Of a stretch of DNA of 64,000 bases, positions 39,096 through 59,521 are shown one piece after another. Below the pieces are notes generated by a model. The model was not told the DNA's origin and made no database searches. It worked only from the letters and a program-made list of their open reading frames with translations. Both the position numbers and the translations under genes were made by a program. The first letter of the stretch is position 1. Every line of letters begins with the position of its first letter. The stretch comes from Desulfobacterales bacterium (GTDB lineage: Bacteria; Desulfobacterota; Desulfobacteria; Desulfobacterales; SURF-7), in assembly GCA_041740615.1 (NCBI GenBank), contig JBGSLR010000026.1, forward strand, positions 5,165 to 69,164, read 5' to 3'.

Positions 39096-40955
39096 CTAAA
39101 AGCCCGGCAAACCGCTGAACCCGATGAAAGACCAATACAGCCCGGCCATCAGCAACAGCATGATGTTGGCGATAAACCAGAGTGGGATTCCGATTCGGAG
39201 AAAATCCTTGGGCTCCAGATACCCGCTGGCGTATACAATGGCGTTGGGCGGCGTGCCGATGATCAGGCAATACGCAAAGGATGAGGCGATGGCCGTGGAA
39301 ATGGCCATGAACGGGAGGAAGGCGGTTCCCGGATGAGCCAGACCGGCCATGTTGAGGGTAACGGGACCCACGGCGGCGGCGGCCGGACCATCCGCCATCA
39401 AATTCGTAACAACGGCGGTCAGGCAGTTGGAAACAGCCAGCAGTGGAAGTCCGGCATTGATTCCCAACGGGCTGAGTAAATCCATGGCGCTTCTGGCGAT
39501 CCAGTAGGCGGCCCCGGTGGTGTCCAGGACACGCCCGAAGATGATGGCGCCGGCATAAAGCCAGACAACCCCCCAGTCGACTTTTTCCTGATAGTCCCGC
39601 CAGTTGACCACGCCGGCCAGGATATAGGCCACAGCGCCGGCGATGGCGATCACGCCGATGCCCAGTCGAACGGGGAACAGGCCGCTGTCGTAAATCGATT
39701 TTTCCGTAAACCATCCGGTGATCATGACCAGGAAGATGCCCAGGGCCCAGATCTGTTTCTTGTTCCAACCACCCATTTTGCTGATTTCCGTCTCCAGATG
39801 GGCCATGGCCGGCGCCAAGGATCGGATGCTGGGTTTGAAGCGCCAGTTGAGCAACAGCCAGGTCACCGGAATCATGACGACCAGGAACGGCATGCCGTAG
39901 ACCATCCATTGATAATAGCCGATATCCATACCGAACATATCGTTCAGATAGGTCATCATGATGACGTTTCGGGCGCCGCCGGAAGGAGCGCCGGGACCGC
40001 CGATATTACAGGCCATGGCGATGCCGATCATCAATATTTTCCCCAGTTCGGGATCCTCGGGGATTTCACGGGTCAGGCTGTTTTGATACAGCAGCATGCC
40101 GATGGGCAGAAACATGGCCGCCAATGCATGGTCGGAAATGAAGGCGGCCAGAGGAGTGATGACGATGAAAAAGATCAGGGTGATCCATTTGACGTTGGGA
40201 ACGGCGAGTTTTTTGAACATCATCAGGCACACGCGCTTGTCCACTCCGGTTTTCACCAGAGCCGCCGCGAACATGAGGCTGCCCATGATGAACCAGCAGG
40301 CGTCACTCCAATAGAGCCCGGCCACTTCTTCCCGTCCGACTACCCCGGTAAACACCAGAATCAGGCCCACGCAGAAGGCCACACCGGGAAGCGGGATGCA
40401 TTCGGTGAGAAAACAACCCACCACGAATACGGTCATGGCGATGGCCACCTGAATGTGCCAGGCTCCTTTTTCCGCGGCTTTTTTTTCGGCTTCGGGTAAT
40501 TGCTCGAACTTCAAATCGTCCTTGCGCAGTTTCAGAACGGTTTTCATCAGGTCGGTATAGGCCTCATCCGAGACTTGGGTTTCCATATGCTGGTAGGCCT
40601 GCTCAAAATTCTTTTTGACCGCCGGAATGCCTTCCTTGCCGCACCATTTCATATCGCGGGACAGGTAGCGCTTTTTGGACAGCGCTCCCATTTGCAGGTT
40701 GCGTTCCATGATCTTGGCCGTCAGGAGTTGCCACTGTTCGGCGGCGGCGCTTTCCTTCTGAAACAAGGTGGTCGTTATGGCGTTGATGACCGCCTGGGGG
40801 CCGACCTTGTATTCGGTGCCCACATCTTTCATGCTGTCGGGGGTGGGGATCATAAGGATTAGAAAAAAGAGCGCGACCGGAATACTGAAAATTTTCCAGT
40901 CCACATATTTATCGTAGCCCGTGGCTTTCTTGGTTTTTGCTATCGGATGGGTCAT
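39096..40955 (-). CDS. DASS/CitMHS-type (SLC13-like) anion transporter with an N-terminal soluble region of about 170 aa
   Basis: Trimmed to the ATG at 40955 (MTHPIAK), which has AGGAGG 7 nt upstream. There are two permease repeats, with hairpin motifs similar to those of the transporters at 46.8 and 50.5 kb. Confidence 0.75.
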   Translation of the reverse strand: MTHPIAKTKKATGYDKYVDWKIFSIPVALFFLILMIPTPDSMKDVGTEYKVGPQAVINAITTTLFQKESAAAEQWQLLTAKIMERNLQMGALSKKRYLSRDMKWCGKEGIPAVKKNFEQAYQHMETQVSDEAYTDLMKTVLKLRKDDLKFEQLPEAEKKAAEKGAWHIQVAIAMTVFVVGCFLTECIPLPGVAFCVGLILVFTGVVGREEVAGLYWSDACWFIMGSLMFAAALVKTGVDKRVCLMMFKKLAVPNVKWITLIFFIVITPLAAFISDHALAAMFLPIGMLLYQNSLTREIPEDPELGKILMIGIAMACNIGGPGAPSGGARNVIMMTYLNDMFGMDIGYYQWMVYGMPFLVVMIPVTWLLLNWRFKPSIRSLAPAMAHLETEISKMGGWNKKQIWALGIFLVMITGWFTEKSIYDSGLFPVRLGIGVIAIAGAVAYILAGVVNWRDYQEKVDWGVVWLYAGAIIFGRVLDTTGAAYWIARSAMDLLSPLGINAGLPLLAVSNCLTAVVTNLMADGPAAAAVGPVTLNMAGLAHPGTAFLPFMAISTAIASSFAYCLIIGTPPNAIVYASGYLEPKDFLRIGIPLWFIANIMLLLMAGLYWSFIGFSGLPGF

Positions 40956-41117
40956 ATTCTCCTCCTGACGGCTGGTATTCATTGATTCAGGTCAACCGGC
41001 ATTCAAGGCGAGCCGAAAATCGGCAAAACAAAAGTGTCGACGCAGACGGCGCGATCCGCGTTTGAATGCGAATGGGAACGTATCACAACAAAACGGTCAC
41101 TCGTCGATCCGGTGAGA

Positions 41118-41576
41118 TTATTCTTCTCCGGTCGAATCCCGCAGAATCTCCCGGGGGGTCTTCATGAACTTTTTGGACTGCGCCAAGCGGATTTTTTCCT
41201 CCAGACGCATCCGTTTTTCATAGGCTTCTTCCGCCTTCCGTATCAGTTCTTGGATGTCTGCCGGTTTGGTCAGGTAGTCGGTTGCACCGGATTTCAATCC
41301 ATCGATGGCGGATTCCACGGTGGCGTGGCCGGTCAGCATGATGACTTCCACGAGGGGAAACTGGCTTTTGATTTCCTTCAACACCGTATTCCCGCTTTTC
41401 CCAGGCATCTTGACATCGAGGATGACCACATGAACCAGTTGGCTGTTCAGCTGATTCATGGCTTCATCACCGTTGGTGGCCGTAATGACGTGATAGCCTT
41501 TCTTTTCCAGTAATTTTTGCGTTGTCGCGAGGAATCGCTCTTCATCATCGACAAGCATCAGTTTCATCTTGCTCAT
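41118..41576 (-). CDS. single-domain CheY-like response regulator with a C-terminal charged helix
   Basis: LMLVDDEERF..., D54-like LDVKMPG, LTGHA..., and a tail EEAYEKRMRLEEKIRLAQ. It is a paralog of the receiver at 52653..53084. Confidence 0.85.
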   Translation of the reverse strand: MSKMKLMLVDDEERFLATTQKLLEKKGYHVITATNGDEAMNQLNSQLVHVVILDVKMPGKSGNTVLKEIKSQFPLVEVIMLTGHATVESAIDGLKSGATDYLTKPADIQELIRKAEEAYEKRMRLEEKIRLAQSKKFMKTPREILRDSTGEE

Positions 41577-41665
41577 TCCTTCGTTCTCCGTGGTTGAGTG
41601 TTTATAAAGTCTTTGGAATGTTTCGGCGCCGATTCCAAGTTATCTTCTTCTGCCCGTAGTAGGGA

Positions 41666-41680
41666 GCAACCTTCATGCCA
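41666..41680 (-). promoter_or_regulatory. sigma-54 promoter in the histidine kinase / response regulator intergenic region
   Basis: The minus strand reads TGGCAT-GAAGG-TTGCT, about 78 nt before the response regulator ATG at 41576. Confidence 0.5.
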
Positions 41681-41816
41681 AGCCGGGACGTGTCATCATC
41701 ATTGGATAGTATGATAAATTTATAGGTATTTCCGGCGGGGTCCGATGTGATCGGCACCGCCGAGACAGGTTGCCTGTCGAGATTTTTTACAGGATGAAAA
41801 AAAACTAACGATCATG

Positions 41817-43532
41817 TCATTTCTCTTTTTGAGGCGGGAGCGTAATTGTAAATGTCGTTCCGGCGTCTTCCTTGCTGGCGGCCGACAAACTACCCCCCAT
41901 GCCCTGGATGATACCATAGCAAACGGATAAACCCAGGCCCGTCCCTTTGCCCACCGGTTTGGTGGTAAAGAAGGGCGCGAATATTTTTTCAATGTTTTCC
42001 GGACGGATACCGATACCCGAATCCGTGACCGATATTTCGACTTTATGTTCTTTGTTTTGTCCTGCATGGATCGCCAGGGAGCCGCCTTCCGGGTGATTTT
42101 TTTCAATTATGGCATCCATGGCGTTGTTATACAGATTCAGGAGTACTTGCTGTAATTGGCCCGGGTCGGCATACACCCGTGGGGTGTTTTCATGGATATC
42201 CTGGGTGATGCGGATTCCGCTGACAGAGGCTTTTTTTTCGATCATGGCGGTTATTTCCGGAATGAATTCCTGTAACACAATGGTTTGCGGGGCGGGCTCA
42301 CCCTGGCGTCCGAATTTGAGGATCGCCTGGGTGATTTTGGCGCAACGGTTGATTTGCAGCTGGATCTGGTTCAATGAGTCCAGCAGGGTCGAGAGATCCT
42401 CTGAGTCCTTGAGACCTCCGACCTGCCTCATTTCAGCCAGAACCATGTCGATCAGCGCCTTTTCGCTTTTCATGATCTGGAGGGGATTATTGATTTCATG
42501 GGCGAATCCGGCCGCCATTTCACCCAGCTCCGCCAACCGGCTGGCGCCGATCAATTGTTGTTCCAGGAGACCCTTGACGTCCTCCATTTTTTCCATACGC
42601 CGAATGATCCGGCCGGTGACATAAAATCCAAGGGGGATGATGAGCATGCCGCTGACGGCTGAAATCAACAGGCTCAGAAACGATGCCACCCGCAGGGATT
42701 TAAATGCATCCGATTTTTCCTTGCGGACCACTAGAAGCCAATCGTTGGATTTCAACCAGGTGGTTGCGTACAGATATTCATCTCCTTGGCGGTCCTTTTG
42801 AATGAAGGTTTCGATTCCGGAATGAAAGCCCGGGTTTTTTTCATGTTCCGGATCGAGGGTCATGAGGTTTCCCCCGGATCTGCGTTCGGTTTGAAAATAT
42901 CCTTCTTTATTCAGAATATAGGCTTCTCCGGTCTTGCCGATACGAACCCGTTCCACGAAATCCGTGAAAATATGACTATCGATGGTCGACCGCAACACCC
43001 ATTTTTGTTTTCCGTCATTTTTCAGGACGGCGATGATGAAATGGGGTTCCTTTCGATATCCAAGGAAAACATCGCTGATATACCAACCCTCTTTCATCAC
43101 TTCTTTGAACCACGTGGCGTCGCTGTAAACTTTCCCACCGAGCTGGTGCGGTCCCCAGTAGGCGACGTGGACCCCGTTTTCATCGAAAAGGCCGATGTCG
43201 GCAAAGGCCGGGGATTTGCGCTGCAAATCAACGATAACCTGATAGAGTTGATCCGGCTGTCGCAGTTTTTCCACCGGATAGGCGTTCAGCACCCAGGCAA
43301 GATCGGTTTTACGCTCGTCCAGGAAAAACTCGATCATCTGGCGATGGTCTTCCACGATTCGCTTCATGCTTTCAATGGTCTTATTTTCGATGGAGGAGTA
43401 GAAAAAATATCCGCCGCTGACCATAACAAGCAAAAACGGGAAAAAGGGAATCACAATCATGCTGACCAGCAACATGCGTCGTAACGGACGGTAGGGATCG
43501 CTCGCACGATTGATTTCGGTTTGATCGGCCAT
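41817..43532 (-). CDS. sensor histidine kinase with a periplasmic Cache/PDC-type domain (HisKA + HATPase_c)
   Basis: TM1, an extracytoplasmic domain of about 250 aa (…[12 protein letters not shown]…), then TM2. It has an H-box (AHEINNPLQ) and N/G1/G2 boxes. Confidence 0.85.
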
Positions 43533-43562
43533 AATGCTGCTCCTTCCGGTTGTGTTGTGATT

Positions 43563-45056: not shown

Positions 45057-45165
45057 CGCTTTTCGCTTGCGCTTCCTTTCATGGATTGTATCCGCTGCCA
45101 CCGGAATCGATGCGTCCCTCAACCGTTGTGGAAGCTCGGATTCTCGGTATTGAACTATTCGAAAA

Positions 45166-45180
45166 GCAACCCCTGTGCCA
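45166..45180 (-). promoter_or_regulatory. sigma-54 promoter (perfect TGGCAC-N5-TTGC) for the PAS / Cache-kinase / response-regulator operon
   Basis: The minus strand reads TGGCAC-AGGGG-TTGCT. Confidence 0.55.
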
Positions 45181-45244
45181 ATATGATTCACCGGCCCAAA
45201 TCAGTTGCGTTAGAGGTGTTGATTTATAAGATCCTGTAGATCAA

Positions 45245-45260
45245 AAGGCATGATATTTGC
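45245..45260 (+). promoter_or_regulatory. sigma-54 promoter for the divergent tandem-Usp gene
   Basis: AGGCAT-GATAT-TTGCT, about 80 nt upstream of the ATG at 45352. Confidence 0.4.
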
Positions 45261-45351
45261 TGTGCATAGGGGGAGAAAGGGTCGAAGTCGAGACGCATTG
45301 ATCCGCCATGTTTTTATTTCGATGCAGTGAAAACCGAATGAGGGGGAATTT

Positions 45352-46284
45352 ATGAAAAAACAGGGAAGCATATTGGTGGCCATCGACGGTTCCATGCAAT
45401 CCATTCATGCGGCAAAGTACATCAGCAGAATCTGCTCGTTGAAAAAACCTCGCATCGTGTTGATGCATGTTGGAAGGCCTGTGCCGGAGGCCTTCCTCGA
45501 CTTGCGCTCCACACCGGGGTTCGGCCGTCAGGTCATCAAGGCCAGCGCTTGGAACATCCAGCAGAAAAAAAATATTCAGGATTGCATGGCCAAAATTCAG
45601 GAGATTTTTTACAGGGACGGATACCCGAAAGGAAATATTGAGGTAAAGATTCAAAAACAACGCCTGGGGATTGCGAGGGATATTATACAGGAAGCCCAAA
45701 ACGACTATAACGCGGTTGTCGTGGGGCGCAGCGGCATCAGCAAGTTGAAGGATGTGTTGCTCGGGAGCATCGCCTATAAACTCGCGGATCAGATCCAACA
45801 AATTCCCATCGTGGTTGTCGGGGGCAATCCGTCGCCTGAAAAGGTACTGATCGCCTTTGACGGCTCAAAAGACGCATACCGCGGGGTGGACTGCGTGCGA
45901 AAGTTGATGGTTCAAGAGGAGCGGGAAGTGCTTCTGTGTCACGTCATCCGATCTCTGAATATCTATCTGGACGCCAATACGTTTTTCAATGAGGAGCAAG
46001 AAGACATGTGGCTGGCGAGCCGGCGTGAAGAAGTGGAAAAGGAATTCGTCAAAGCCGAGGCGCGTCTTCAAAAAGGCGGTTTCACGCCTGAACGGCTTTC
46101 TCATATCACCCTGGAGAACGAAGCATCGCGCGCCATCGCCATTCAGGACATCGCTCGTGAAAAAGGATACGGTTCCATTGTGTTGGGCCGCCGCGGGCTG
46201 ACGAGTGTGGAGGAGTTTTTGATGGGTCGCGTGAGCCGGAAAGTGCTGCACCTGGCGAAGAAACAGGCCGTATGGATCGTATGA
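45352..46284 (+). CDS. tandem universal stress protein (UspA x2)
   Basis: 310 aa with two Usp halves (VVGRSGISKLKDVLLGSIAYKL and IVLGRRGLTSVEEFLMGRVSRKV). Confidence 0.8.
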   Translation: MKKQGSILVAIDGSMQSIHAAKYISRICSLKKPRIVLMHVGRPVPEAFLDLRSTPGFGRQVIKASAWNIQQKKNIQDCMAKIQEIFYRDGYPKGNIEVKIQKQRLGIARDIIQEAQNDYNAVVVGRSGISKLKDVLLGSIAYKLADQIQQIPIVVVGGNPSPEKVLIAFDGSKDAYRGVDCVRKLMVQEEREVLLCHVIRSLNIYLDANTFFNEEQEDMWLASRREEVEKEFVKAEARLQKGGFTPERLSHITLENEASRAIAIQDIAREKGYGSIVLGRRGLTSVEEFLMGRVSRKVLHLAKKQAVWIV

Positions 46285-46305
46285 TCCGGCTTCTGTGAGG
46301 AGAAA

Positions 46306-46332
46306 GGCGGCCCATCGGTTATGATGGGCCGC
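46306..46332. terminator. hairpin between the convergent usp and response-regulator genes (candidate bidirectional terminator)
   Basis: GGCGGCCCATC, loop GGTTAT, then GATGGGCCGC. There is no strong U-tract. Confidence 0.35.
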
Positions 46333-46341
46333 TTCCATCCA

Positions 46342-46782
46342 TTAGATATTGCCGCCTCTTCTCAGCAACAGTTTGGCTTCCGCCTGGCGGATGCGCTCGT
46401 CCTGCTCATCCTTGCGTTTTCTGGCGGCCTCCAGTTTCGTGGACAGGTCCGAAAAGTCGGCCGGCTTCAGCAGATAATCAAAGGCGCCCAATTTCATGCC
46501 CTGAACCGCCGTCTCGGTGCTGCCGTGACCGGTGAGCAGGATGACTTCCACCAGTGGGAACCGCTTCTTGATTTCCTTCAGGGTGTCGATGCCGTCCATG
46601 CCCGGCATCTTGATATCCAGGATGACAACATCCACCGGCTGTTTCGACAGCAAATCCAGGCACCCCTTTCCACTGTCGGCGATTGAAACCTGTTCGCCGC
46701 TTTCCGTGAGTCGCAGGGAAAGCAATTCGGCAAAATCCTGTTCATCGTCGACGAGCAATACGCGTGTCGGTATTCTGATCAT
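46342..46782 (-). CDS. single-domain CheY-like response regulator (copy A)
   Basis: Only the 3' 441 nt of the ORF 46342..47256 is used: MIRIPTRVLLVDDE... About 85 % identical to the receiver at 48925..49365. Confidence 0.85.
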   Translation of the reverse strand: MIRIPTRVLLVDDEQDFAELLSLRLTESGEQVSIADSGKGCLDLLSKQPVDVVILDIKMPGMDGIDTLKEIKKRFPLVEVILLTGHGSTETAVQGMKLGAFDYLLKPADFSDLSTKLEAARKRKDEQDERIRQAEAKLLLRRGGNI

Positions 46783-48383: not shown

Positions 48384-48425
48384 ATGATGGTTTCCTCCAC
48401 TCTAGATTGTTTGGTTCGATATTCA

Positions 48426-48557
48426 TAGAAGTGGTTTCAAAGCCTTCAATCGGCCATGGCCGGGAAAGGTGCTCACGCGCGGACAATCCGCTGGTGTGTT
48501 GAGCGCCCGTCCCGGTAAACCGATGGGAATCGAGGGGAGGTTTTGAAACCACTTCTA
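48426..48557 (-). promoter_or_regulatory. structured 5' leader: a 16-bp perfect inverted repeat enclosing a GC-rich 100-nt core (candidate riboswitch, attenuator or ncRNA)
   Basis: TAGAAGTGGTTTCAAA (48426-41) is the reverse complement of TTTGAAACCACTTCTA (48542-57). The core contains the self-complementary GGCCATGGCC. It lies between a sigma-54 promoter and the transporter start codon. Confidence 0.5.
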
Positions 48558-48587
48558 AACAAACTGATTGCGTACGGCTCCAATCGA

Positions 48588-48602
48588 GCAACCTCCATGC
48601 CA
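48588..48602 (-). promoter_or_regulatory. sigma-54 promoter for transporter copy A and the response regulator
   Basis: The minus strand reads TGGCAT-GGAGG-TTGCT. Confidence 0.5.
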
Positions 48603-48924
48603 ACTATTTATTCCATATGTTGTCACCTAACATGGAGCAATCAGAACAAAAGCAAACAGAGACGTGGATGACTGTAAAAAAAAGAAATGGCCCCCTGTCA
48701 GAACTTTTTACAGGTTGTAAAAAACATATTCTGCTGATGGAAGAAACTGGGGGTATACGGAAGCTGCATTGGACAGAGATCGAATACGGACATATTTTTA
48801 CCACGAAGGACACAAAGAAATGTTCTTACGTTCCGGCACGGCAGAAATAACTTTGTGTTCTTCGTGATCAACGAAGCGAGTGGTGGTATACGCATCGCCA
48901 AAGGTTTTTTATCATTCGTTGGTA

Positions 48925-49365
48925 CTAAACATCTCCACTTCTTCGCATCAGCAGTTTGGCTTCGGCTTTTCGGATGCGTTCTTCCTGTTCATCCTTGCGC
49001 AGTCTTGCGGCTTCGAGTTTTGTCGACAAATCCGAAAAGTCCGCCGGTTTCAGGAGGTAATCAAAGGCGCCGAGCTTCATTCCCTGAACCGCCGTCTCGG
49101 TGCTGCCGTGCCCGGTGAGCAGAATGACTTCAACCAGCGGGAACTGCTTTTTGATTTCTTTCAGGGTGTCGATGCCGTCCATGCCCGGCATCTTGATATC
49201 CAGGAGGACCACATCCACCAGCTTTTCTGTCAGCCGGTCCAGGCATTCCTTTCCGCTGTGGGCGGTCAATACCTGCTCGCCGCTATCCGTGAGCCGCAGG
49301 GACATGATTTCAACAAAATCCGTTTCGTCATCGACGAGCAAAACGCGTGTGGGTATTCTGATCAT
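48925..49365 (-). CDS. single-domain CheY-like response regulator (copy B)
   Basis: 146 aa. Paralog of 46342..46782. Confidence 0.85.
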   Translation of the reverse strand: MIRIPTRVLLVDDETDFVEIMSLRLTDSGEQVLTAHSGKECLDRLTEKLVDVVLLDIKMPGMDGIDTLKEIKKQFPLVEVILLTGHGSTETAVQGMKLGAFDYLLKPADFSDLSTKLEAARLRKDEQEERIRKAEAKLLMRRSGDV

Positions 49366-49413: not shown

Positions 49414-50544
49414 TCATCCATCTCGCCGGTTGGGGATGCTCACCGAAAAGCAGGCTCCTTTTCCGATGCCGCTTTCCAGCCGAATGTTTCCCTGCAGGCG
49501 TTGCACAATGCCCCGCACGATAAAAAGGCCGAGGCCCGTCCCCTTTCCCGGGGGCTTGGTGGTGAAAAAGGGTTCGAATATTTTTTCCTGATGTTCTTTG
49601 GGGATGCCGCCGCCGGTATCCGAGATCCGAAACAGAATTTGTTGTCCTTCTTCCTGGACCTGTACGGTGACAACGGCGTTTTCTTCACTGGCATGGACGG
49701 CGTTGGTCAACAGGTTGAGGAGCACCTGTCTCAATTGAAACGGATCGCTCCAGAAGATTTTCAGATGATCGGGAAGGTTGGTGGCGATCCGGATGTGTTT
49801 GACGGCCGTCTCCTTTTCCACCAGTCGGATGATATCCGCAATGAATTCGGAAAGGTCGATTTCCGACAGGGAAAGGGGTGTTTCCCGAACCACCCCCAAA
49901 AGCTGGTGGGTGATCCGGCGTGCCCGGTCCACGGCCGTTTCAATTTTTTCAAGGGCTTTTTCAATGTCGGCTTTGCGTTCGATTCCGCCTTCCCTGCTTT
50001 TACCGAGGATCTGGCGCATCCAACCCGCTGCTTCGTTGATGATCGCAAGGGGGTTGTTGATTTCATGGGCAATACCGGCCGCGAGGGTTCCCAGGGATGC
50101 CAGACGCTTGTTGGCGATGATCTGACGTTCCATGGCTTCCCGCAGTTCCGCTTCCCGCAGTTTATCCTTTTCCCGTTGGATCTTGTCATGCGCCTGGATG
50201 ATCTTGCTTTCCAGATGATCGATCTCGACGGGCTTGGTCAGATAGTCGAAAGCGCCGGCCTTGATGCCGTCGACACCGTCCTGGGGGGATGCATGACCGG
50301 TCAGGAGGATGGTCTCGATCTTCGGAAAACGCTCCCGAATGCGTCCCAGTAGATCGAGACCGCTCATCCCCGGCATTTTGACATCCGACACCACGACATC
50401 CACGGGCTGTTTTTCCAGGATGTCCAGGCCGGCGGCGCCGCTGGTGGCCAGGAGCGCCTCCATACCTCTCTTTTTCAGTCGTTTGGCGATGGCCTCGATA
50501 AAATAGAGTTCATCGTCCACGAGCAGCAGGCGAATGGGTTCCAC
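49414..50544 (-). CDS. hybrid histidine kinase: N-terminal receiver followed by HisKA + HATPase_c, with no sensor domain
   Basis: Receiver (LLVDDE..DVKMPG..LTGHA), H-box [11 protein letters not shown] and G boxes. It starts 4 nt after the stop of transporter B. Confidence 0.85.
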   Translation of the reverse strand: MEPIRLLLVDDELYFIEAIAKRLKKRGMEALLATSGAAGLDILEKQPVDVVVSDVKMPGMSGLDLLGRIRERFPKIETILLTGHASPQDGVDGIKAGAFDYLTKPVEIDHLESKIIQAHDKIQREKDKLREAELREAMERQIIANKRLASLGTLAAGIAHEINNPLAIINEAAGWMRQILGKSREGGIERKADIEKALEKIETAVDRARRITHQLLGVVRETPLSLSEIDLSEFIADIIRLVEKETAVKHIRIATNLPDHLKIFWSDPFQLRQVLLNLLTNAVHASEENAVVTVQVQEEGQQILFRISDTGGGIPKEHQEKIFEPFFTTKPPGKGTGLGLFIVRGIVQRLQGNIRLESGIGKGACFSVSIPNRRDG

Positions 50545-52233: not shown

Positions 52234-52641
52234 TTAATCATTGCGCTGTCGCGCCTGATATGCCTTTTTAATTTTCGTCAACAGTTCTTCCAGTTCACAG
52301 GGCTTGGTCAGGTAGTCAAAGGCGCCGCAACTCATCCCTTCCTTCGCTGCGGCGGCGGATCCATGACCGGTGAGCATGATCACTTCCATGAGCGGGTCCA
52401 TTTTCTTGAAGATGCGCAGGACATCGAGGCCGTTCATGTCCTCCATTTTCAGGTCGAGAACCGCCACGTCGAAATCCTGGTGCCGCATGGTCTGGATGGC
52501 TTCGGTGCCGCCATAGGCTTTCACCACCTGAAATCCCCTCTTGGTGAGGCGGTTGGCCAGCACATTGGCGTAGCCCTCCTCATCATCCACCAAAAGGATT
52601 CGAGCCGCCCCTTGAACCGGCGTTTTGCTTTGAGCTGTCAT
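52234..52641 (-). CDS. single-domain response regulator receiver
   Basis: ILLVDDE, LDLKMEDMNG, LTGHG. Confidence 0.85.
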   Translation of the reverse strand: MTAQSKTPVQGAARILLVDDEEGYANVLANRLTKRGFQVVKAYGGTEAIQTMRHQDFDVAVLDLKMEDMNGLDVLRIFKKMDPLMEVIMLTGHGSAAAAKEGMSCGAFDYLTKPCELEELLTKIKKAYQARQRND

Positions 52642-52652
52642 GGTCCAGGCCC

Positions 52653-53084
52653 TTATGCCATCCGTTGGGTGATTTCTTTCATTCGCGCCTCGATGATTTT
52701 GATTTCGTGCTTTCGTTTTTTATCCGCGGCTTCCGTCACCTTGGACAGCAGGATATCCATATCGCAGGGCTTCATGAGATAATCAAAGGCGCCCAGCTTC
52801 ATCCCTTCGATGGCGGATTCGACGGTGGCGTGACCGGTCAGCATGATGACTTCCAGCAACGGATGTCGCCTCTTGATTTCCATCAGGGTTTCGATGCCGT
52901 CCATGCCCGGCATCTTGACGTCCAGAATGATGACCTCGATGGTGTTATTTTTGTCCAGCAACGCCAGAGCGTCATTCCCGTTCAGGGAGGTTTCGACTTC
53001 CAGCTCCCGTTTGGTGAGACGTTTTTGCATGGCCGCCACGAATGGCGCCTCATCATCCACCAGTAAAACCGTTGCAAGTTTCAT
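52653..53084 (-). CDS. single-domain CheY-like response regulator with a C-terminal charged helix
   Basis: Paralog of 41118..41576. Confidence 0.85.
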   Translation of the reverse strand: MKLATVLLVDDEAPFVAAMQKRLTKRELEVETSLNGNDALALLDKNNTIEVIILDVKMPGMDGIETLMEIKRRHPLLEVIMLTGHATVESAIEGMKLGAFDYLMKPCDMDILLSKVTEAADKKRKHEIKIIEARMKEITQRMA

Positions 53085-53143
53085 GTACGCTTTCTCCTTT
53101 CTTATAGAAATGATCCAAACGATATTTCAAAAAGCCTTTCCGG

Positions 53144-54907
53144 TCATTCCAGCGACAAGGTCGCCTCCTCGGTTTTTACCGATGGCGCGGTCGCTGGGCG
53201 TTCACTCTGGGCCATATTGGCGATGGGCAATTTGATCCGGAAGCGTGTGCCGATGCCGACAGCGCTGTTGACCGTGATGTCGCCCCCCATTTTCTGGACA
53301 ATGCCGAAGCAGATGGACAACCCCAGACCGGTTCCCTTTCCCACCGGTTTGGTGGTGAAAAACGGGTCGAAAATTCTGGGCAGTATGGATTCCGGGATTC
53401 CCGGTCCGTTGTCGGCGATATCGATAAAGACCTGATCCTGGGATTGCTTGCTGGTGATATCGATGATGCCGCCCTTTTTTTCCATGACGTAGAGGGCGTT
53501 GTTGATCAGATTCAGCAATACCTGCTGCATTTCGGAAGGAGAAATGTTCATCCGCGGGATGTCCTGTTGCAGGTGGGTCCGGATATCCACACTGTTGTAT
53601 TTGGCCATTTGGGAACTGAGCGCCACGATTTCGACGATCAGGTCGTTGATTTGAACATCCTTGGTCTGGCTGTCGGTCTTGCGGGCGAAACTGAGCAGTT
53701 TATGGGTGATGTCCTTGCAGCGTTTTCCCTGGGTATGAATCTGCTTGAGGGATTTTTTAAATTCCGCAAGGTTATTGGTTTCCCGGAGATCTTCTTCTTC
53801 CAACAGATCGCCGATCCAGCCGGCTTCCTCCACCATGATGGCCACCGGATTATTGATTTCATGAGCGATGCCGGCGGCCAGCTCTCCCAGGGACGCCAAT
53901 TTTCCCGTTTCCACCACTTGCTGTTGCATCATCTCATTCTTCTTGTCGGCTGAACGGATGATGCGCACAATCCGCCGGGAAAGGATCAAGGCCATGAATA
54001 GAATGGCGCAGGCGCCCAACAGGAAGATGACGGCGGCGATTTTTTCCGTGCGGTCGAGATCGGAGAAGGCATCGGCGGCATCCTGTTGGAAAACCAGCAG
54101 CCAATCGTTGTTTTTCAGAAAAGCGGTGACGTATATGTGTCTTCGACCTTCTTCTTCCGCATTCCGGAACATGTGAATTTCTTTTTCATCCTGATTGGAA
54201 GCTTTCAACAGGTATTCGATTTTCGGAGGGGTGACATCGAAGGAAGGTTTGGTTTGGAGCTGGCCGTCTTTGTTGATCAGAAAGGCAATTCCGGTGCGAC
54301 CGACCCGCAGATTTTCCACCAGGGAATTGAAGGCCGTGAAATCGATGGTGGCCCTCAGAATCCAATACCTTCCCCCATAGGTATGCCGGACCGCAATGAT
54401 AAAATGAGGGTGGCCGCGCAGGCCCAGAAAAACATCACTGATGTAATAGCTGCTTTTAATCGCTTCATGAAACCAGTCCGCATCCGCATAACGCGCCTGG
54501 GACAGGTTGAAGGGGCCGGCATAGGCCATTTGAATCCCCTCGTCATTGATGAGACCCAAATCCGTGAAGACGAGACCGTATTCCCGTTTCAGCAGATTCA
54601 ACTTTTCCTGGAGAAAGGGTTCATTGATCAACTCTTCCAGGCTGCGGTTGGCCGAAAGAAATCGTAAATTGCTCAAGCGTTCCTTCAGAAAGGCATCGAT
54701 GTTCTGTTTGTGCTTCATCACGACTTCCACCAGATGATCATCGGTCTTTTCGATGTAGGAGTCCCGAAACTGATACAGCAGGGTAACGATGACCAGAATC
54801 ATGGGACTGAACGATACGATCATGATGGTCAGAATGATTTTGCGGGTGAGACTCTGGTAGAAATTGGCGTCCGAATGGCTGGTGGCGTAATTCATATGCG
54901 GATTCAT
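53144..54907 (-). CDS. sensor histidine kinase with a periplasmic Cache/PDC-type domain (paralog of 41817..43532)
   Basis: Same architecture. The H-box is AHEINNPVAI, and GLRGHPHFIIAV lies in the sensor domain. Confidence 0.85.
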   Translation of the reverse strand: MNPHMNYATSHSDANFYQSLTRKIILTIMIVSFSPMILVIVTLLYQFRDSYIEKTDDHLVEVVMKHKQNIDAFLKERLSNLRFLSANRSLEELINEPFLQEKLNLLKREYGLVFTDLGLINDEGIQMAYAGPFNLSQARYADADWFHEAIKSSYYISDVFLGLRGHPHFIIAVRHTYGGRYWILRATIDFTAFNSLVENLRVGRTGIAFLINKDGQLQTKPSFDVTPPKIEYLLKASNQDEKEIHMFRNAEEEGRRHIYVTAFLKNNDWLLVFQQDAADAFSDLDRTEKIAAVIFLLGACAILFMALILSRRIVRIIRSADKKNEMMQQQVVETGKLASLGELAAGIAHEINNPVAIMVEEAGWIGDLLEEEDLRETNNLAEFKKSLKQIHTQGKRCKDITHKLLSFARKTDSQTKDVQINDLIVEIVALSSQMAKYNSVDIRTHLQQDIPRMNISPSEMQQVLLNLINNALYVMEKKGGIIDITSKQSQDQVFIDIADNGPGIPESILPRIFDPFFTTKPVGKGTGLGLSICFGIVQKMGGDITVNSAVGIGTRFRIKLPIANMAQSERPATAPSVKTEEATLSLE

Positions 54908-55329
54908 CCCTGATCAAGTTCGGCGCTGCGCCGGGGCATCGTCTTCTGACGGTTGTCCCGGCGGTCGAATATCCTGGCAACGGCTTTTTTGACATTCTCA
55001 ATGCTGTTTCCGGATTTTTCGATGATGTCGTTTATGGCGACGCCTTCCAGGCCATTGGCGCTATCCGCCCCATGGGCATGCAGCACAAGGGGCAACGTCG
55101 GAATGCGTTCTTTCAGTCTTCGCAATGGAGCAAGGGTTCCATTGTCCGGCAAATCCGGATCCATGATCAGCAGGTCCGGGGATTCCGCCTTAAACGCCAG
55201 CTCGACAACCTCCTGGGCGGTTTTGGCCAGATGAATGCGGTAGCCGGCGGAGGCCAGTTCCCTTTTCAGCAGTTCCCGGACATGGGGATTCCGATCGGCG
55301 ATCAATATGGTGAATGTTTTTATTGTCAT
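54904..55329 (-). CDS. atypical receiver-domain protein
   Basis: ILIADRN...LLIMDPDLPD...LVLHAH has a receiver-like topology with a divergent active site. It overlaps the kinase gene by 4 nt. Confidence 0.65.
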   Translation of the reverse strand: MTIKTFTILIADRNPHVRELLKRELASAGYRIHLAKTAQEVVELAFKAESPDLLIMDPDLPDNGTLAPLRRLKERIPTLPLVLHAHGADSANGLEGVAINDIIEKSGNSIENVKKAVARIFDRRDNRQKTMPRRSAELDQG

Positions 55330-55444
55330 AGATGCTCTTGGTATTTTCTATGATGCGGGCGGCATCATCATGGAGAATCTCTCCGTTGCCTGATCGCTTA
55401 TTGGGTCGGGGGATATGATCCCCCTTCCGAAGGTTTCATCGCGA

Positions 55445-56248
55445 TCAGCGAATGGGTTTCATGCCTTTTTGCTTGATGACGTCTCTCCCTTTCGGCGTCA
55501 ATGCAAACTGAATGAATTTTTGGACCGCACCGGTAGGGGTCCCTTTGGTGACGAAAGAATAAATCTGATAATACGGATAACGTATGTCCTCGGGTGCGTG
55601 ACCGTTGATTTTCAAGGCCTTGACTTTCGCATGGTCTTTGGTGGTGCCGTAACCGATGAAAGAAATCATGGCCGGAGAGCGTTCCACCGCATTCAGTACG
55701 CCGGTCGATCGGTAGGCGGTGAAATCATACAGCAGCTCGCGTTGGGACATCACCTGTCGATCGAAATTCTTGTAGGCGCCGGTTTTTTCCCCCGGAATCA
55801 TTACGACGATGTTTTCATCCCGCCCCCCCAACTCTTTCCAGTTGATGATGGTTTTGTTGAATATCCCCTTTAGTTGCTCATCGGTAATATCACCCACCGG
55901 ACAGTCGACATTGACGATCACGGCCAGGGGATCGCGGCAGAATGGTATTTGCACATAGCCATATTCCCGGTGACGGTAGGAAAGATGTTCTGTGGTGCTG
56001 GCAATATCACTGAAATCACTAAGCAATCGTCGAACGGCAGCATTGGATGAGGAAACGGTTTTTTCCACGACCACACCGGTCTCCTTGGTGAACGATGCAA
56101 TAAAATCGTTGCCGAACACTTCATGCACTTGCGCCGAGCAGCTATATCGAATGGTTTCCTGAGCCGCCGCCGTGAAGATGGGAAGCAGGATGCAGAAAAT
56201 ACAGATAACGATCCGGCTATACAATCGAGTGAGCGTATTTTTTTTCAT
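55445..56248 (-). CDS. solitary PstS-like (PBP-fold) periplasmic binding protein, first gene of the long operon
   Basis: A signal peptide, and LKGIFNKTIINWKELGG, which is typical of phosphate/anion-binding PBPs. Confidence 0.65.
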   Translation of the reverse strand: MKKNTLTRLYSRIVICIFCILLPIFTAAAQETIRYSCSAQVHEVFGNDFIASFTKETGVVVEKTVSSSNAAVRRLLSDFSDIASTTEHLSYRHREYGYVQIPFCRDPLAVIVNVDCPVGDITDEQLKGIFNKTIINWKELGGRDENIVVMIPGEKTGAYKNFDRQVMSQRELLYDFTAYRSTGVLNAVERSPAMISFIGYGTTKDHAKVKALKINGHAPEDIRYPYYQIYSFVTKGTPTGAVQKFIQFALTPKGRDVIKQKGMKPIR

Positions 56249-56335
56249 GGTTCTTCTCCTGACGGAACGATTTTGTACGAGTTTTGCTTGCTATGCAGGT
56301 TAGCATGGCCGGCAATCGATTTTACATGAATATTG

Positions 56336-56350
56336 GCAATGAACATGCCA
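56336..56350 (-). promoter_or_regulatory. sigma-54 promoter for the binding-protein / response-regulator / kinase / transporter operon
   Basis: The minus strand reads TGGCAT-GTTCA-TTGCC. The sequence is a near-palindrome, and the minus-strand reading is the better match. Confidence 0.5.
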
Positions 56351-56446
56351 GGGTGTCGGTGGAACACAGTTTTTGGATAACTATCTGTTATGATGTTATT
56401 TTTATATTATATAGCTCGCCGAATTTATCCACCGTCCGGTTTCGAA

Positions 56447-56496
56447 TGTCGGTTTTTTTTACGGACATCCGTTGGGGGTGTCGGCTTTTTTTACAG
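56447..56496. repeat. two direct repeats TGTCGG-Y-T7/8-AC-RG, 32 nt apart; candidate activator (UAS) sites
   Basis: TGTCGGTTTTTTTTACGG (56447-64) and TGTCGGCTTTTTTTACAG (56479-96). A third TGTCGG lies at 56354. They sit about 100-150 nt upstream of the minus-strand sigma-54 promoter. Confidence 0.4.
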
Positions 56497-56610
56497 TGGA
56501 CAACAGCGCGCCGGCTCAATACAATGGAATGTGGATTTTTTGTCATCATTACCATGCATCCGAAATCGTTATTGCGGTGTTTTCGGATCAACCATGAAAG
56601 AAAAAAGCCC

Positions 56611-58080
56611 ATGTTTCAAAAAGTAAGCCTCCGGTTGCGACTGTTTTTATTGATAACGGCGCTGGCGTTGCTGAATCTTCTCGGTTCCCTGGGAACGGTC
56701 TGGTATACGTATCGAACGCAGAGCCTTTATGCGGCTGTACTGGATCAGGACGTGTCCGCGCTGACGGCCGCGCAGAAAATGGAAACCGAGTTGATCATGC
56801 AGAAAGGGTTGACCAGCTATTTTTTCCTGACCAACGACGAAAAATGGCTTGCACAACTGCTTGAGCGGACGCGGAATTTTAAACATTGGCTGACCGTTGC
56901 GCGGGAGATGAACAACATCGAGGAAGCCAGGGGGATCCTGAATGAAATCGAATCCCGCTTCATCCAGTATGGATTCGATCGGGATAATGTGATTGCGCTG
57001 TATAAGGGAGGTAAACGAAAAGAAGGGGAAAATCTGCACTGGAAGGTCCGTGACCAGTTTTTCGCCATTTTTGATCTGGCTGAAAAATTCAAGACGGCCC
57101 ATGAACGTCAGATTGCGGATCTGCAGAGAAAATTTCGGCGATCCAGCTCGAAAATGGCGGTATTCGCCTGGGCCGCCATCCCATGCGTACTGATTATCAG
57201 TATCCTGCTCACCGCCATCATTTTACGGCAGATCTTGAGTCCCATCCGCCGACTGGCCATGGGAAAGGAAGGCCCGAAAAGACCCATCGGCGACGAAGTC
57301 CAAGCGGTGAAAAACCGCCTGGACGATCTGGTGGAGAATATCGGGCAAACCCAGGCGAAACTGATGGAAAGTCAGGCCCATCTTATTCAGTCAGAAAAAC
57401 TTGCCATGGTGGGGAAGCTCGCGGCCGGTGTGGCGCACAGCGTCCGGAATCCATTGACTTCCGTTAAAATGAGACTGTTCACATTGGAACGCAGCCTGCA
57501 GCTGACGCCGCCCCAGAAAGAGGACCTGGATGTCATTTCCGAGGAAATCCGGCATATCGATACCATCCTCAGAAATTTTCTTGAGTATTCGCGGCCGCCC
57601 AAACTGAAAATGCACACGGCCAGTCCTTCCGATGTAGTGGATATGACCTTGCAACTGTTGCGGCATCGTTTCGATTCCTACCGCACGGAAGTCCAGGTAA
57701 TAAGAACCGGGAGATTGCCCGAGATACCCATCGATACGGATCAATTGAAAGAAGTGCTGGTCAATCTGATGGTGAATGCCTGTGAGGCCATGGGGGAAGG
57801 CGGGACAATTCAGATCCAGGAAGAAACCGGCCTGCGGGAGAATATAGGAGAAGTTGCGCTGATTGAAGTCCATGACAATGGCCCGGGAATACCGGCGGCG
57901 CTTGTGGATAAGATTTTTCAGCCTTTTTTCAGCTCCAAGGAGGAAGGTTCGGGACTGGGACTCAGCATCGCAAGGCGGATAATTGAAGAGCACGGCGGCG
58001 AAATCAACGCGAAGCCCGATGAAGGCATCGGGGCCACCTTTGTCATCTCGCTGCCCCTGAAGGAGGAGATCCATGGCTAA
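56611..58080 (+). CDS. sensor histidine kinase (two transmembrane segments, helical periplasmic sensor, HisKA + HATPase_c), partner of the sigma-54 activator
   Basis: Trimmed to MFQKVSLRLRLFLL. H-box AHSVRNPL, and G boxes DNGPGIP and GSGLGL. Confidence 0.85.
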   Translation: MFQKVSLRLRLFLLITALALLNLLGSLGTVWYTYRTQSLYAAVLDQDVSALTAAQKMETELIMQKGLTSYFFLTNDEKWLAQLLERTRNFKHWLTVAREMNNIEEARGILNEIESRFIQYGFDRDNVIALYKGGKRKEGENLHWKVRDQFFAIFDLAEKFKTAHERQIADLQRKFRRSSSKMAVFAWAAIPCVLIISILLTAIILRQILSPIRRLAMGKEGPKRPIGDEVQAVKNRLDDLVENIGQTQAKLMESQAHLIQSEKLAMVGKLAAGVAHSVRNPLTSVKMRLFTLERSLQLTPPQKEDLDVISEEIRHIDTILRNFLEYSRPPKLKMHTASPSDVVDMTLQLLRHRFDSYRTEVQVIRTGRLPEIPIDTDQLKEVLVNLMVNACEAMGEGGTIQIQEETGLRENIGEVALIEVHDNGPGIPAALVDKIFQPFFSSKEEGSGLGLSIARRIIEEHGGEINAKPDEGIGATFVISLPLKEEIHG

Positions 58081-59521
58081 AATTCTGATTGTCGATGACG
58101 ACCCCCAACTGCGGCAGAGTTTCCAGAAGATCCTGTCAAGCGAAGGGCATACCCTGTTGACGGCCAATTCCGGGGAAGCCGGCATCGCCGTGGTCAAGGA
58201 GAACCAGCCGGACTTGGTGGTCATGGACGTGCGCATGCCGGGCATGAGCGGCCTGGAGGCCTTTGAAATGATGCATCAGCTCCATCCCAAGATGCCGGTC
58301 ATCATCATGACAGCTTACGGCACCACGGAAACCGCCATCGAGGCCACCAAAATGGGCGCATTTGATTACGTGCTCAAACCGTTCGAAATCCCGGACATTC
58401 TTGATCTCATCGAAAGAGCCCTTCAGGCCGGGCGTTTCATGCGGTCCCAGGTCACGGTAAACGCCCCGGCCAAATCCGTGATCCAGGATGCCATCGTAGG
58501 CCAGAGCGCTCCCATGCAGGAGGTGTACAAAGCCATCGGCCGCGCCGCTCCCACCGACGCCACGATTCTCATCCGCGGGGAATCCGGAACCGGCAAAGAA
58601 CTGGTGGCCCGTGCGATCTATCAGCACAGCCTGAGAGCCGACCAGCCGTTTCTGGTGATCAACTGTGTGGCGATACCCGAAACACTGTTGGAAAGTGAAT
58701 TGTTCGGTTATGAAAAAGGCGCCTTTACCGGCGCGGTGAACAGGCGGGTGGGCAAAATCGAGCAGGCCAACAACGGCACGGTTTTTCTGGATGAGATCGG
58801 CGACATGCCCTATAATATCCAAGCCAAGATTCTTCGCTTGCTGCAGGAGAAAAGTATTGAACGATTGGGAGGCCGGCAACCGATTCCCGTGGATGTCCGC
58901 ATCATCGCCGCCACCAATCGCGATCTGGAGGCGGCCGTTACGGAAGGGCGGTTCCGGGAAGATTTGTATTACCGCCTGAAAGTCGTCAGTCTGAATCTGC
59001 CGCCCTTGAGAGAACGACCGGAGGATCTGCCGTTGCTGATCGATTATTTCCTGCAGAAATTCAGTCGGGAGATGAATGTCACCGATCCCGGCAGATCGGA
59101 TGCCGCCTTGCACGCCTTGCGTCGGCATGCATGGCCGGGAAATGTTCGGGAACTGGCCAATACCATCCAGAAAGCGCTGATTTTCAGCCAGGGGGCGCCG
59201 TTTACAGAGGACGATATCATCCGTTCGATGGATGCCCATCACGGGCACCGGAAAGCATCCCGGGCCTCCGCTGCGGAAGGGTTTGAGTCCGGGTTGAGAG
59301 AGTGGGTGCACCAGATGCTCGTGTCAGCGGGCGAGGAAAACCTGTTCGACAGCATTATGGACTATTTCGGCGGTATCGTCACCCGTGAGGCCCTGAATAT
59401 CACCGAGGGAAATCGCACCCAGGCGGCAAAAATACTAGGGCTTTCCCGGCCGACCCTGTTGGCCCGCATTGAACGCTATGGCTTGAAAATCCAGACCGGT
59501 GTGAAGGGACCGGATGAGTGA
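58073..59521 (+). CDS. sigma-54-dependent Fis-family response regulator (NtrC/AtoC-like enhancer-binding protein)
   Basis: Receiver, AAA+ (GESGTGKE, GAFTGA, ESELFGYEKGAFTG) and a C-terminal HTH. It overlaps the kinase gene by 8 nt. Confidence 0.9.
   Translation: MAKILIVDDDPQLRQSFQKILSSEGHTLLTANSGEAGIAVVKENQPDLVVMDVRMPGMSGLEAFEMMHQLHPKMPVIIMTAYGTTETAIEATKMGAFDYVLKPFEIPDILDLIERALQAGRFMRSQVTVNAPAKSVIQDAIVGQSAPMQEVYKAIGRAAPTDATILIRGESGTGKELVARAIYQHSLRADQPFLVINCVAIPETLLESELFGYEKGAFTGAVNRRVGKIEQANNGTVFLDEIGDMPYNIQAKILRLLQEKSIERLGGRQPIPVDVRIIAATNRDLEAAVTEGRFREDLYYRLKVVSLNLPPLRERPEDLPLLIDYFLQKFSREMNVTDPGRSDAALHALRRHAWPGNVRELANTIQKALIFSQGAPFTEDDIIRSMDAHHGHRKASRASAAEGFESGLREWVHQMLVSAGEENLFDSIMDYFGGIVTREALNITEGNRTQAAKILGLSRPTLLARIERYGLKIQTGVKGPDE

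Follow-up and report, generated by a model that had tools for sequence, protein, structure and literature searches.

We analysed a 64,000-nucleotide stretch of DNA from a Desulfobacterales bacterium (assembly GCA_041740615.1, contig JBGSLR010000026.1, positions 5,165 to 69,164; hereafter the window), within which an island at 39096-59521 encodes three anion carriers of the DASS family together with an array of kinases, receivers and an NtrC-type sigma-54 activator. We propose, with moderate confidence, that this island is a sulfate-limitation regulon under the control of the activator, that it is equipped with a second signalling layer, and that it is a copy of the known cluster of probable Na+/sulfate DASS symporters of sulfate-reducing bacteria. 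The proposal draws on domain content, synteny, the conservation of promoters and an upstream site kept at a fixed spacing from them.

Dissimilatory sulfate reduction begins with the uptake of sulfate, and a large share of the carbon oxidation in marine sediments has been ascribed to the Desulfobacteraceae (PMC11887813); how such bacteria switch between low- and high-affinity sulfate uptake is a question of the field. As the cluster is already in the literature, the window adds only another member to it. What may be new is the phased enhancer-like site, an activator and a kinase that can be pointed out, and a predicted regulon, with which a speculative published model becomes experimentally testable.

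Gene content and synteny

The gene map (Table 1) was built from the listing of open reading frames (ORFs), their translations and Pfam scans, and it places all island genes on the minus strand except Usp2, HK4 and the activator gene. A Pfam search of each protein bore out the content given in the initial annotation (three DASS carriers, two sensor kinases with a dCache domain, a hybrid kinase, a fourth kinase with an NtrC-type activator, and a PstS-like protein), apart from the receiver count: six stand-alone receivers are present in place of the seven claimed. The list had also passed over the tandem universal stress protein (Usp) gene, Usp2.

One genome per species was scanned for relatives of the island, which gave 321 loci; the best 80 were taken and annotated by BLAST against the window proteins (single loci are given below by L numbers), and synteny was counted in the 43 that had at least 4 kb on both sides. 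The gene order is kept in dozens of Desulfobacterales and Desulfatiglandales genomes, as module A ([PBP]-[degenerate REC]-dCacheHK-REC-REC-DASS-hybrid HK-REC, in which PBP, REC and HK stand for periplasmic binding protein, receiver and histidine kinase), module B (dCacheHK-REC-long DASS-Yip1-REC/CBS) and module C (HK-activator), and all three modules are present in the window. In 35 of the 43 loci the gene directly downstream of DASS is that of the hybrid kinase, and in 31 a receiver gene comes next. In 30 loci a dCache kinase orthologue precedes DASS at a distance of no more than 1.5 kb. An orthologue of the activator (identity at least 55%) is part of 21 loci. In Desulfobacula toluolica Tol2 (L001) the order is dCacheHK-REC-REC-DASS-REC/HK-REC-HK-activator, syntenic with the core of the window at 51-73% protein identity.

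The conserved cluster extends to the left of 39096 and takes in the small ORF, the Yip1 gene and REC-CBS. The Yip1 gene follows directly downstream of the long DASS carrier gene in L050, L056, L067, L069 and L070, and REC-CBS is placed after these two genes in L050, L056 and L070 (56-60% identity). The ORF of 57 amino acids (aa), for which no Pfam family was found even at relaxed thresholds, was recovered by tblastn at the matching position in L056, L069 and L070. The Usp genes at 35342-37312 possibly belong to the conserved cluster as well; a membrane GGDEF diguanylate cyclase gene (34432-35340, minus strand) adjoins them at the left edge of the island.

One other genome has a DASS-REC mini-unit that resembles the extra copy of the window (DASSa-REC2); in that genome the stand-alone DASS-receiver pair (L066, from 10001, with its own sigma-54 promoter at 9667-9682, ~310 nt upstream) and the full cassette (L027) lie on different contigs.

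The island is an instance of a published cluster, and the earlier view that the system had not been described does not hold. In Desulfosarcina variabilis 3be13, a 30.5-kb 'DASS-type sulfate transporter' cluster holds many two-component systems, Usp, CBS and REC-CBS proteins; 26 sulfate reducers were reported to have related clusters, and kinases were proposed to sense external sulfate (PMC11887813; Sci Adv 2025). The two have in common the DASS carriers, cache-type kinases, response regulators, Usp, CBS and REC-CBS proteins, as well as the taxonomic range. Unlike the published cluster, the window has an extra tandem DASS-REC unit, a His-less PAS/DHp gene and three carriers that are all group-Cii-like, with no 490-aa Ci-type carrier among them. 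Moreover, the regulators are named 'WalR type' in PMC11887813, whereas those beside the cache kinases in the window and in D. toluolica are receiver-only proteins with no winged helix. Supplement file 3 of the same paper has entries for TOL2_C19430 (response regulator), C19460 (CBS) and C19470 (sodium/sulfate symporter), and since the numbering TOL2_C19410-C19470 fits the order of L001 exactly, the 526-aa orthologue of the window carrier corresponds to TOL2_C19410; the activator of that locus is TOL2_C19450.

The carriers and their substrate

DASSa and DASSb are 87% identical to each other, and DASSL is 28% identical to both. With TIGR00785, DASSa scored 236.6 bits and DASSL 224.7 bits, above the curated cut-off of 198.6, which places them in the DASS family (TC 2.A.47). 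Orthologues of DASSa are 69-74% identical across Desulfobacterales and Desulfatiglandales, the upper figure being the highest DASS identity among the related loci, and those of DASSL are 71-77% identical in L009, L056, L069 and L070. With the 525-aa carrier as query, a protein search gave homologues by the hundred (71-74% identity), of which those with names are from Desulfobacteraceae, Desulfobacula, Desulfococcaceae and Thermodesulfobacteriota (the D. toluolica Tol2 protein carries the name 'Sodium/sulfate symporter'), and close homologues were seen only in sulfate-reducer lineages.

By analogy with published data on related genes, sulfate is probably the substrate of the window carriers. 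TOL2_19410 and HRM2_38300 of Desulfobacterium autotrophicum both belong to DASS group Cii (PMC5840216; Marietou 2018), and as that paper summarises Tarpgaard 2017, HRM2_38230 and HRM2_38300 were highly expressed below 100 µM sulfate and the Ci-type HRM2_40290 at high sulfate. The region HRM2_38230-HRM2_38300 resembles the island in having three DASS genes within a few genes, in the same group Cii as TOL2_19410, and the induction of two of the three at < 100 µM sulfate (again as summarised there) fits an inducible sigma-54 design; the text of PMC5840216 offers no promoter or regulator analysis for these D. autotrophicum genes.

That the same architecture and sigma-54 control serve another inorganic oxyanion (thiosulfate, sulfite, phosphate, molybdate/tungstate or selenate) is unlikely, though several points speak for it. 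The DASS family also carries inorganic anions, phosphate included (PMC5840216), the case for sulfate transport by these carriers is indirect, and the two carrier types, being as divergent as 28% identity, may differ in substrate. Against this stand the sole physiological data, which in the summary of PMC5840216 link the subgroup to sulfate concentration, and the report of the cluster across 26 sulfate reducers (PMC11887813). The PstS-like accessory protein of the island, which would seem to favour another oxyanion, bears on both sides. It scored 96.3 bits with TIGR02136, below the cut-off of 206.6 for the PstS family, and in the alignment to 4gd5 GSTS is replaced by CSAQ, ASRD by TTEH, and R-EDG-SGT by P-GEK-TGA. 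The positions of the phosphate ligands of E. coli PstS (Arg and Ser-Gly-Thr) are thereby lost, and no pstCAB genes lie near its gene. Because the ligands are lost and a PstCAB partner is missing, the protein is, as judged from its sequence, less likely to bind phosphate than to be an accessory in the sensing of another oxyanion; with its score below the family cut-off as well, the PstS-phosphate reading was rejected.

The best solved-structure match of the carrier is the dicarboxylate (succinate) carrier VcINDY (E = 5e-38), and many homologues bear the JGI name 'sodium-dependent dicarboxylate transporter 2/3/5'. dCache kinases such as DctB sense dicarboxylates, and a sigma-54 activator is at hand, all of which would suit an island that controls, in a DctB/DctD- or CitA/CitB-like manner, the uptake of organic di- or tricarboxylates (succinate, fumarate, malate, citrate, tartrate) by INDY-type carriers. 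We nevertheless consider this improbable. INDY-type carriers bind Na+ and the carboxylate substrate by two Ser-Asn-Thr (SNT) motifs at hairpin tips; in the window carriers the first of those of VcINDY aligns with HDA and the second with ANV, and both are invariant in an alignment of 14 orthologues. The fold itself is shared: residues 107-520, the PPNA region among them, could be aligned with VcINDY and human NaS1 (SLC13A1); in NaS1 the second motif so aligned is SNP. Close homologues occur, as noted, only in sulfate-reducer lineages, the fold family of the accessory binding protein is one for oxyanions (PstS) and not that of DctP or TctC, and for the periplasmic dCache domain of the window kinases no sequence relative could be detected among solved structures, not even DctB. 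As the expression of same-subgroup DASS genes tracks sulfate concentration in the summary of PMC5840216, with induction at low sulfate in D. autotrophicum, the C4-dicarboxylate analogy of the initial annotation is probably wrong on the substrate.

The wiring differs too. In the rhizobial DctB/DctD-DctA system, a periplasmic double-PAS/Cache kinase and an NtrC-family sigma-54 activator with upstream sites control an anion carrier. The island has all of these, but its carriers are of the DASS and not the DAACS family, the kinase of its activator possesses a helical-bundle sensor instead of a Cache domain, its Cache kinases would pair with output-less receivers, and its substrate is probably inorganic. 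The DctB/DctD reading was rejected on three of these grounds: an activator-paired kinase with no Cache domain, Cache kinases that lead to output-less receivers, and carrier motifs that are not of the carboxylate type.

VcINDY has no counterpart to the N-terminal extension of the three carriers (residues 1-105 in DASSa and DASSb, 1-170 in DASSL). This extension (~95 aa in the carrier aligned to VcINDY) consists of one transmembrane (TM) helix and a small soluble domain, carries an invariant PRPEGT motif in the 525-aa type, and matched no Pfam family at relaxed thresholds. The low-confidence AlphaFold model of DASSa (mean pLDDT 60, from a 14-sequence alignment) suggests that the extension holds a beta-alpha-beta-beta-alpha-beta unit.

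Sigma-54 promoters and a phased upstream site

Promoters were searched with the pattern TGGCAY-N5-TTGCW, and one-mismatch versions were counted if GG and GC were kept. The exact pattern occurs 4 times in the 64-kb window against 0.18 expected, and 3 of the 4 matches lie inside the island on the coding strand. The five promoters that had been claimed are all present: three are exact (41665-41680, 45165-45180 and 48587-48602), and the other two carry one mismatch. A start codon follows each of the five 75-195 nt downstream on the correct strand, and no further GG-N10-GC candidates were found in the remaining short intergenic gaps of the island.

The related loci contain 129 sigma-54 sites against ~66 expected, half of them just upstream of cluster genes and on the same strand. 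They precede the PBP, REC6w or CacheHK2 orthologue in more than 20 loci and the CacheHK1 orthologue in L009, L018, L021, L050 and L067, while DASS-proximal promoters were also seen in L055, L066, L075 and L076. The position matching the 41665-41680 promoter is occupied in L056, and the AGGCAT...CTTGCT variant of the Usp2 promoter recurs upstream of Usp orthologues in L011, L020, L037 and L047. Five transcription units are likely: PBP to REC3 (with eight genes), DASSa-REC2, PAS-CacheHK1, REC1-DASSL onward, and Usp2. A strong terminator-like hairpin after REC2 (46307-46332) would end the DASSa-REC2 unit.

Farther upstream, a second element was recognised. The alignment of 62 sites gave the consensus tTTTACA-N3-TGTAAAAAAA-N-CTGACA, that is, a 7-3-7 palindrome followed by CTGACA, situated 108-115 bp upstream of the -24 element and present at three of the five window promoters. 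Its exact search motif, YGTAAAAA-N5-GACA, occurs 4 times in the window, always in the island and on the coding strand, at 110, 111, 113 and 145 bp (start to start) from the -24 elements of the three promoters; the two copies in front of the PBP operon sit in the divergent region that this operon shares with that of HK4 and the activator. Across the 80 related loci the exact motif was found 58 times, against ~0.1 in Markov-resampled sequence, and 33 of these sites are followed by a sigma-54 site 105-118 bp away, a pairing that the resampled sequence never showed. With N6 spacing the motif had no more than a chance match, N5 being the correct spacing.

The genes that follow such site-promoter pairs elsewhere comprise the REC6w operon, the second dCache kinase or its receiver, both carrier types, and genes for Usp, a CBS protein, a cNMP-binding protein and a CoA-binding/acetyltransferase of ~830 aa. 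Since pairs stand in front of acetyltransferase, CBS and cNMP genes, the regulon would be wider than the carriers. The pairs before the ~830-aa protein (Pat- or AcsA-like) lie at 3228-3357 in L018, 3824-3952 in L021, 3424-3553 in L050 and 3933-4062 in L057; in L040 and L073, site and promoter precede the CBS and cNMP-binding genes.

Loci of the Desulfobacula type have two inverted copies of the site (e.g., L001 of D. toluolica, 7141-7190, with the promoter at 7246-7261), an arrangement also present in L004, L012, L028, L030, L042, L049, L053 and L074. Their promoters were missed by the filter because the -12 element is TTGAT and not TTGC.

At the promoters of the PAS protein and Usp2 the upstream site was not found in either orientation, and hence another activator may act there; the Usp orthologues in L073 and L081 do carry the upstream site with a sigma-54 promoter. 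For the published cluster, the main text of PMC11887813 and its supplementary files, as searched by term, describe no sigma-54 promoter, activator or upstream site, and the sigma-54 regulome of D. vulgaris (Kazakov 2015) has nothing on DASS or sulfate carriers. The promoter-enhancer architecture is a useful detail and may be unpublished.

In the 540-bp gap between REC3 and DASSa, a 21-nt inverted repeat (48797-48817 / 48851-48871) lies between the REC3 stop codon and the upstream site of DASSa and may be the terminator of the eight-gene operon. The leader of DASSa (~190 nt, 48384-48576, minus strand) can form a long hairpin (-69.8 kcal/mol, z = -4.7 vs shuffles) with arms at 48426-48452 / 48531-48557, whose sequence recurs neither elsewhere in the window nor in any of the 81 loci. 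An Rfam scan of 34000-61000 at E <= 1 gave no match, and the leader accordingly matches no known riboswitch.

The activator and its kinase

The activator contains a Sigma54_activat domain (246.6 bits) with GESGTGKE and GAFTGA motifs, which assigns it to the NtrC class. Its scores stay below the cut-offs both for NtrC (TIGR01818, 500.4 vs 558.6) and for AtoC (NF008469, 488.6 vs 714), and by sequence it is neither NtrC proper nor AtoC. The likeness to NtrB/NtrC (glnAp2) and AtoS/AtoC comprises the domain order, GAFTGA, a Fis-type helix-turn-helix (HTH) and a site ~110-150 bp from the promoter, and among NCBIfam models the activator is most similar to NtrC and AtoC, the kinases to AtoS; scores below the equivalog cut-offs, the site sequence and the targets set the island apart from them.

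We predict that this activator binds the upstream site. It is the only island protein in which Pfam found a DNA-binding domain, its operon is divergent from and abuts the site copies at 56447-56495, and 26 orthologues have a near-invariant HTH (T.GNRS.AA.LL..SRPTL) that activator paralogues encoded in the same loci do not share. Upstream of HK4 and the activator lies the region's best sigma-70-like match (TGGACA-17-TACAAT, 10/12, 56497-56525, plus strand), and since it abuts the upstream site, autoregulation of the pair is possible. The adjoining kinase, HK4, has two TM helices that flank a helical periplasmic domain of ~150 aa and, according to Pfam, no Cache domain; its D. toluolica orthologue is recorded with 4HB_MCP_1, which the window protein matches weakly.

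The same parts could be wired otherwise, with another factor at the site or with the dCache kinases feeding the activator and HK4 as a side branch. All four kinases have an H-box of one type (AHEINNPL or AHSVRNPL) and the receivers are NtrC-type, which makes cross-talk plausible; besides, roughly half of the loci have no activator orthologue in their +/-10 kb flanks, and two window promoters are devoid of the site. We still judge this decidedly improbable, given that the genes of HK4 and the activator overlap by 8 nt and travel together in 21 loci, that the activator gene abuts the site in the window, that its HTH is conserved in step with the site, and that the island encodes no other DNA-binding protein. 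As for the idea that the genes merely lie side by side with no shared regulation and with promoter-like sites arisen by chance, two of the five sites do carry a mismatch, but a gene order conserved across orders of Desulfobacterota, promoters at orthologous operon starts, the excess of exact matches and the phased pairs that resampled sequence lacks make it very unlikely, and the original claim of one co-regulated sigma-54 island stands.

Receivers and dCache kinases

The stand-alone receivers are 135-152 aa long, with Response_reg as their sole Pfam domain and no Trans_reg_C winged helix; REC2 and REC3 are 84% identical, and the best NCBIfam similarity of REC5 is to the receiver domain of NtrC. 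Loss of the Asp/Lys triad had been named beforehand as a point that would refute the reading as one regulon. In the alignment with CheY, the equivalents of D12/D13, D57, T87 and K109 are kept in five of the six, and likewise in the receiver domains of REC-CBS, the activator and the hybrid kinase, which counts in favour of that reading. The sixth, REC6w, is degenerate (D13 to Arg, T87 to His, ADRN in place of DDE), with D57 and K109 kept. Degenerate receivers of this type constitute a conserved subfamily (e.g., L018 from ~7209, L039 from ~6753), and in many genomes the REC6w orthologue is the first gene after an upstream site and promoter.

CacheHK1 and CacheHK2 are 37% identical. The protein described at first as a His-less PAS/DHp protein is indeed so: its H-box reads GGLSDQINTPL, with Asp for His, and it has no ATPase domain. 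Its gene is without orthologue in any of the 80 related loci.

Proposed mechanism

We reason that the carriers are DASS-type probable Na+/sulfate symporters of completely oxidising sulfate reducers and that scarce external sulfate would be the most likely trigger of the circuit. In a first layer, HK4 would phosphorylate the activator, perhaps with the help of the orphan PstS-like periplasmic protein. The activator would then bind TTTTACA-N3-TGTAAAAAAA-N-CTGACA, centred ~130-140 bp upstream of the start point, and open the sigma-54 promoters of three operons, namely PBP to REC3 (with DASSb), DASSa-REC2, and REC1-DASSL onward.

The second layer, probably non-transcriptional, would be formed by the two dCache kinases, the receiver-kinase hybrid and the six output-less receivers. 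Operon adjacency suggests that CacheHK2 acts on REC5, REC4 and the receiver of the hybrid kinase, the hybrid kinase on REC3 and REC2, and CacheHK1 on REC1. As these receivers are devoid of DNA binding, they probably act through protein-protein contacts, and may thereby gate the carriers beside them, or else drain (as a phosphate sink) or modulate the flow of phosphoryl groups to the activator. Of the multi-step phosphorelay suggested at first, the classical His-Asp-His-Asp form shows no sign here: the island has no Hpt domain, and the DHp-like protein has no His.

Genes of output-less receivers always have a DASS carrier gene beside them, and one receiver type was duplicated together with its carrier. 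We therefore entertain, as a speculative and rather unlikely extension, that the receivers act directly on the neighbouring carriers, so that the dCache kinases would gate sulfate import within seconds through phosphorylation-dependent binding of receiver to carrier, and the activator would set carrier abundance through the rigidly phased enhancer. If true, this would be a two-component system with the activity of a secondary transporter as its output.

Several points weigh against the sulfate-limitation regulon. The upstream site is missing from two of the five window promoters (45165-45180 and 45246-45261), its binder may be an activator encoded elsewhere, and rpoN is not within the 64-kb window. 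On the side of the substrate, the best solved-structure match is a dicarboxylate carrier, VcINDY, the sulfate assignment draws on expression and proteomics in relatives, and we infer the orthology of the window carriers to HRM2_38300 through shared subgroup membership and not from sequence. Finally, the most abundant DASS proteins of the cluster were reported as constitutively formed (PMC11887813); these appear to be of the other type (Ci, 490-aa), which has no counterpart in the window.

A further parallel, also drawn by PMC11887813, is PhoR/PhoB-PstS, in which limitation for an oxyanion leads to high-affinity uptake and a PstS-fold protein takes part in the circuit. In contrast to that system, the window has neither a PhoB-type winged-helix regulator nor PstCAB, its PstS-like protein is without the phosphate ligands, and its promoters are of the sigma-54 type and not sigma-70 promoters with a Pho box.

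Feature coordinates and a distant promoter

Table 1. Genes, promoters and upstream sites of the island and its left flank, in window coordinates.
Feature	Position	Strand	Basis
REC-CBS, receiver fused to CBS pair	37327-38310	-	Pfam Response_reg + CBS
Yip1-domain membrane protein, module B	38329-38850	-	Pfam Yip1
Small ORF, 57 aa, hydrophobic C-terminal helix, between DASSL and Yip1	38864-39037	-	translation
DASSL, long DASS carrier, 628 aa	39096-40982	-	Pfam Na_sulph_symp + CitMHS
REC1, stand-alone receiver, 152 aa, charged C-terminal helix	41118-41576	-	Pfam Response_reg only
Sigma-54 promoter TGGCATGAAGGTTGCT before REC1-DASSL	41665-41680	-	exact match
Upstream site TTTTTCA-TCC-TGTAAAAAATCTCGACA, 111 bp from -24 of REC1-DASSL	41775-41801	-	
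CacheHK1, periplasmic dCache_1 sensor kinase	41817-43532	-	Pfam dCache_1, HisKA, HATPase_c; H-box AHEINNPL
Three-PAS protein with DHp-like helix	43563-45056	-	Pfam PAS families + sub-threshold partial HisKA
Sigma-54 promoter TGGCACAGGGGTTGCT before PAS protein + CacheHK1	45165-45180	-	exact match
Sigma-54-like promoter AGGCATGATATTTGCT before Usp2	45246-45261	+	one mismatch
Usp2, tandem universal stress protein	45352-46284	+	Pfam Usp, two stretches
REC2, stand-alone receiver	46342-46782	-	Pfam
DASSa, DASS carrier, 525 aa	46806-48383	-	Pfam, TIGR00785
Sigma-54 promoter TGGCATGGAGGTTGCT before DASSa-REC2, ~190 nt from start codon	48587-48602	-	exact match
Upstream site TTTTACA-ACC-TGTAAAAAGTTCTGACA, 110 bp from -24 of DASSa-REC2	48696-48722	-	
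REC3, stand-alone receiver	48925-49365	-	Pfam
Hybrid kinase REC-HisKA-HATPase, cytoplasmic, no sensor domain	49414-50544	-	Pfam
DASSb, DASS carrier, 525 aa	50549-52126	-	Pfam
REC4, stand-alone receiver	52234-52641	-	Pfam
REC5, stand-alone receiver, charged C-terminal helix	52653-53084	-	Pfam
CacheHK2, periplasmic dCache_1-HisKA-HATPase sensor kinase	53144-54907	-	Pfam
REC6w, degenerate receiver	54904-55329	-	Pfam, 44.7 bits
PstS-like PBP, orphan periplasmic binding protein	55445-56248	-	Pfam PBP_like_2
Sigma-54 promoter TGGCATGTTCATTGCC before eight-gene operon PBP to REC3	56335-56350	-	one mismatch
Two direct upstream-site copies CGTAAAAAAAACCGACA, TGTAAAAAAAGCCGACA, 113 + 145 bp from -24 of PBP operon	56447-56495	-	
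HK4, membrane kinase	56611-58080	+	Pfam HisKA, HATPase_c
NtrC-type sigma-54 activator, REC-AAA+-HTH_8	58073-59521	+	Pfam Response_reg, Sigma54_activat, AAA_lid_14, HTH_8

The fourth exact promoter match of the window, TGGCATGGCTATTGCT (13813-13828, plus strand), lies outside the island, ~100 nt upstream of a glutamate-synthase-like operon (13932-19055; domains Glu_synthase, GXGXG and Pyr_redox_2), and is probably a separate sigma-54 promoter for nitrogen assimilation.

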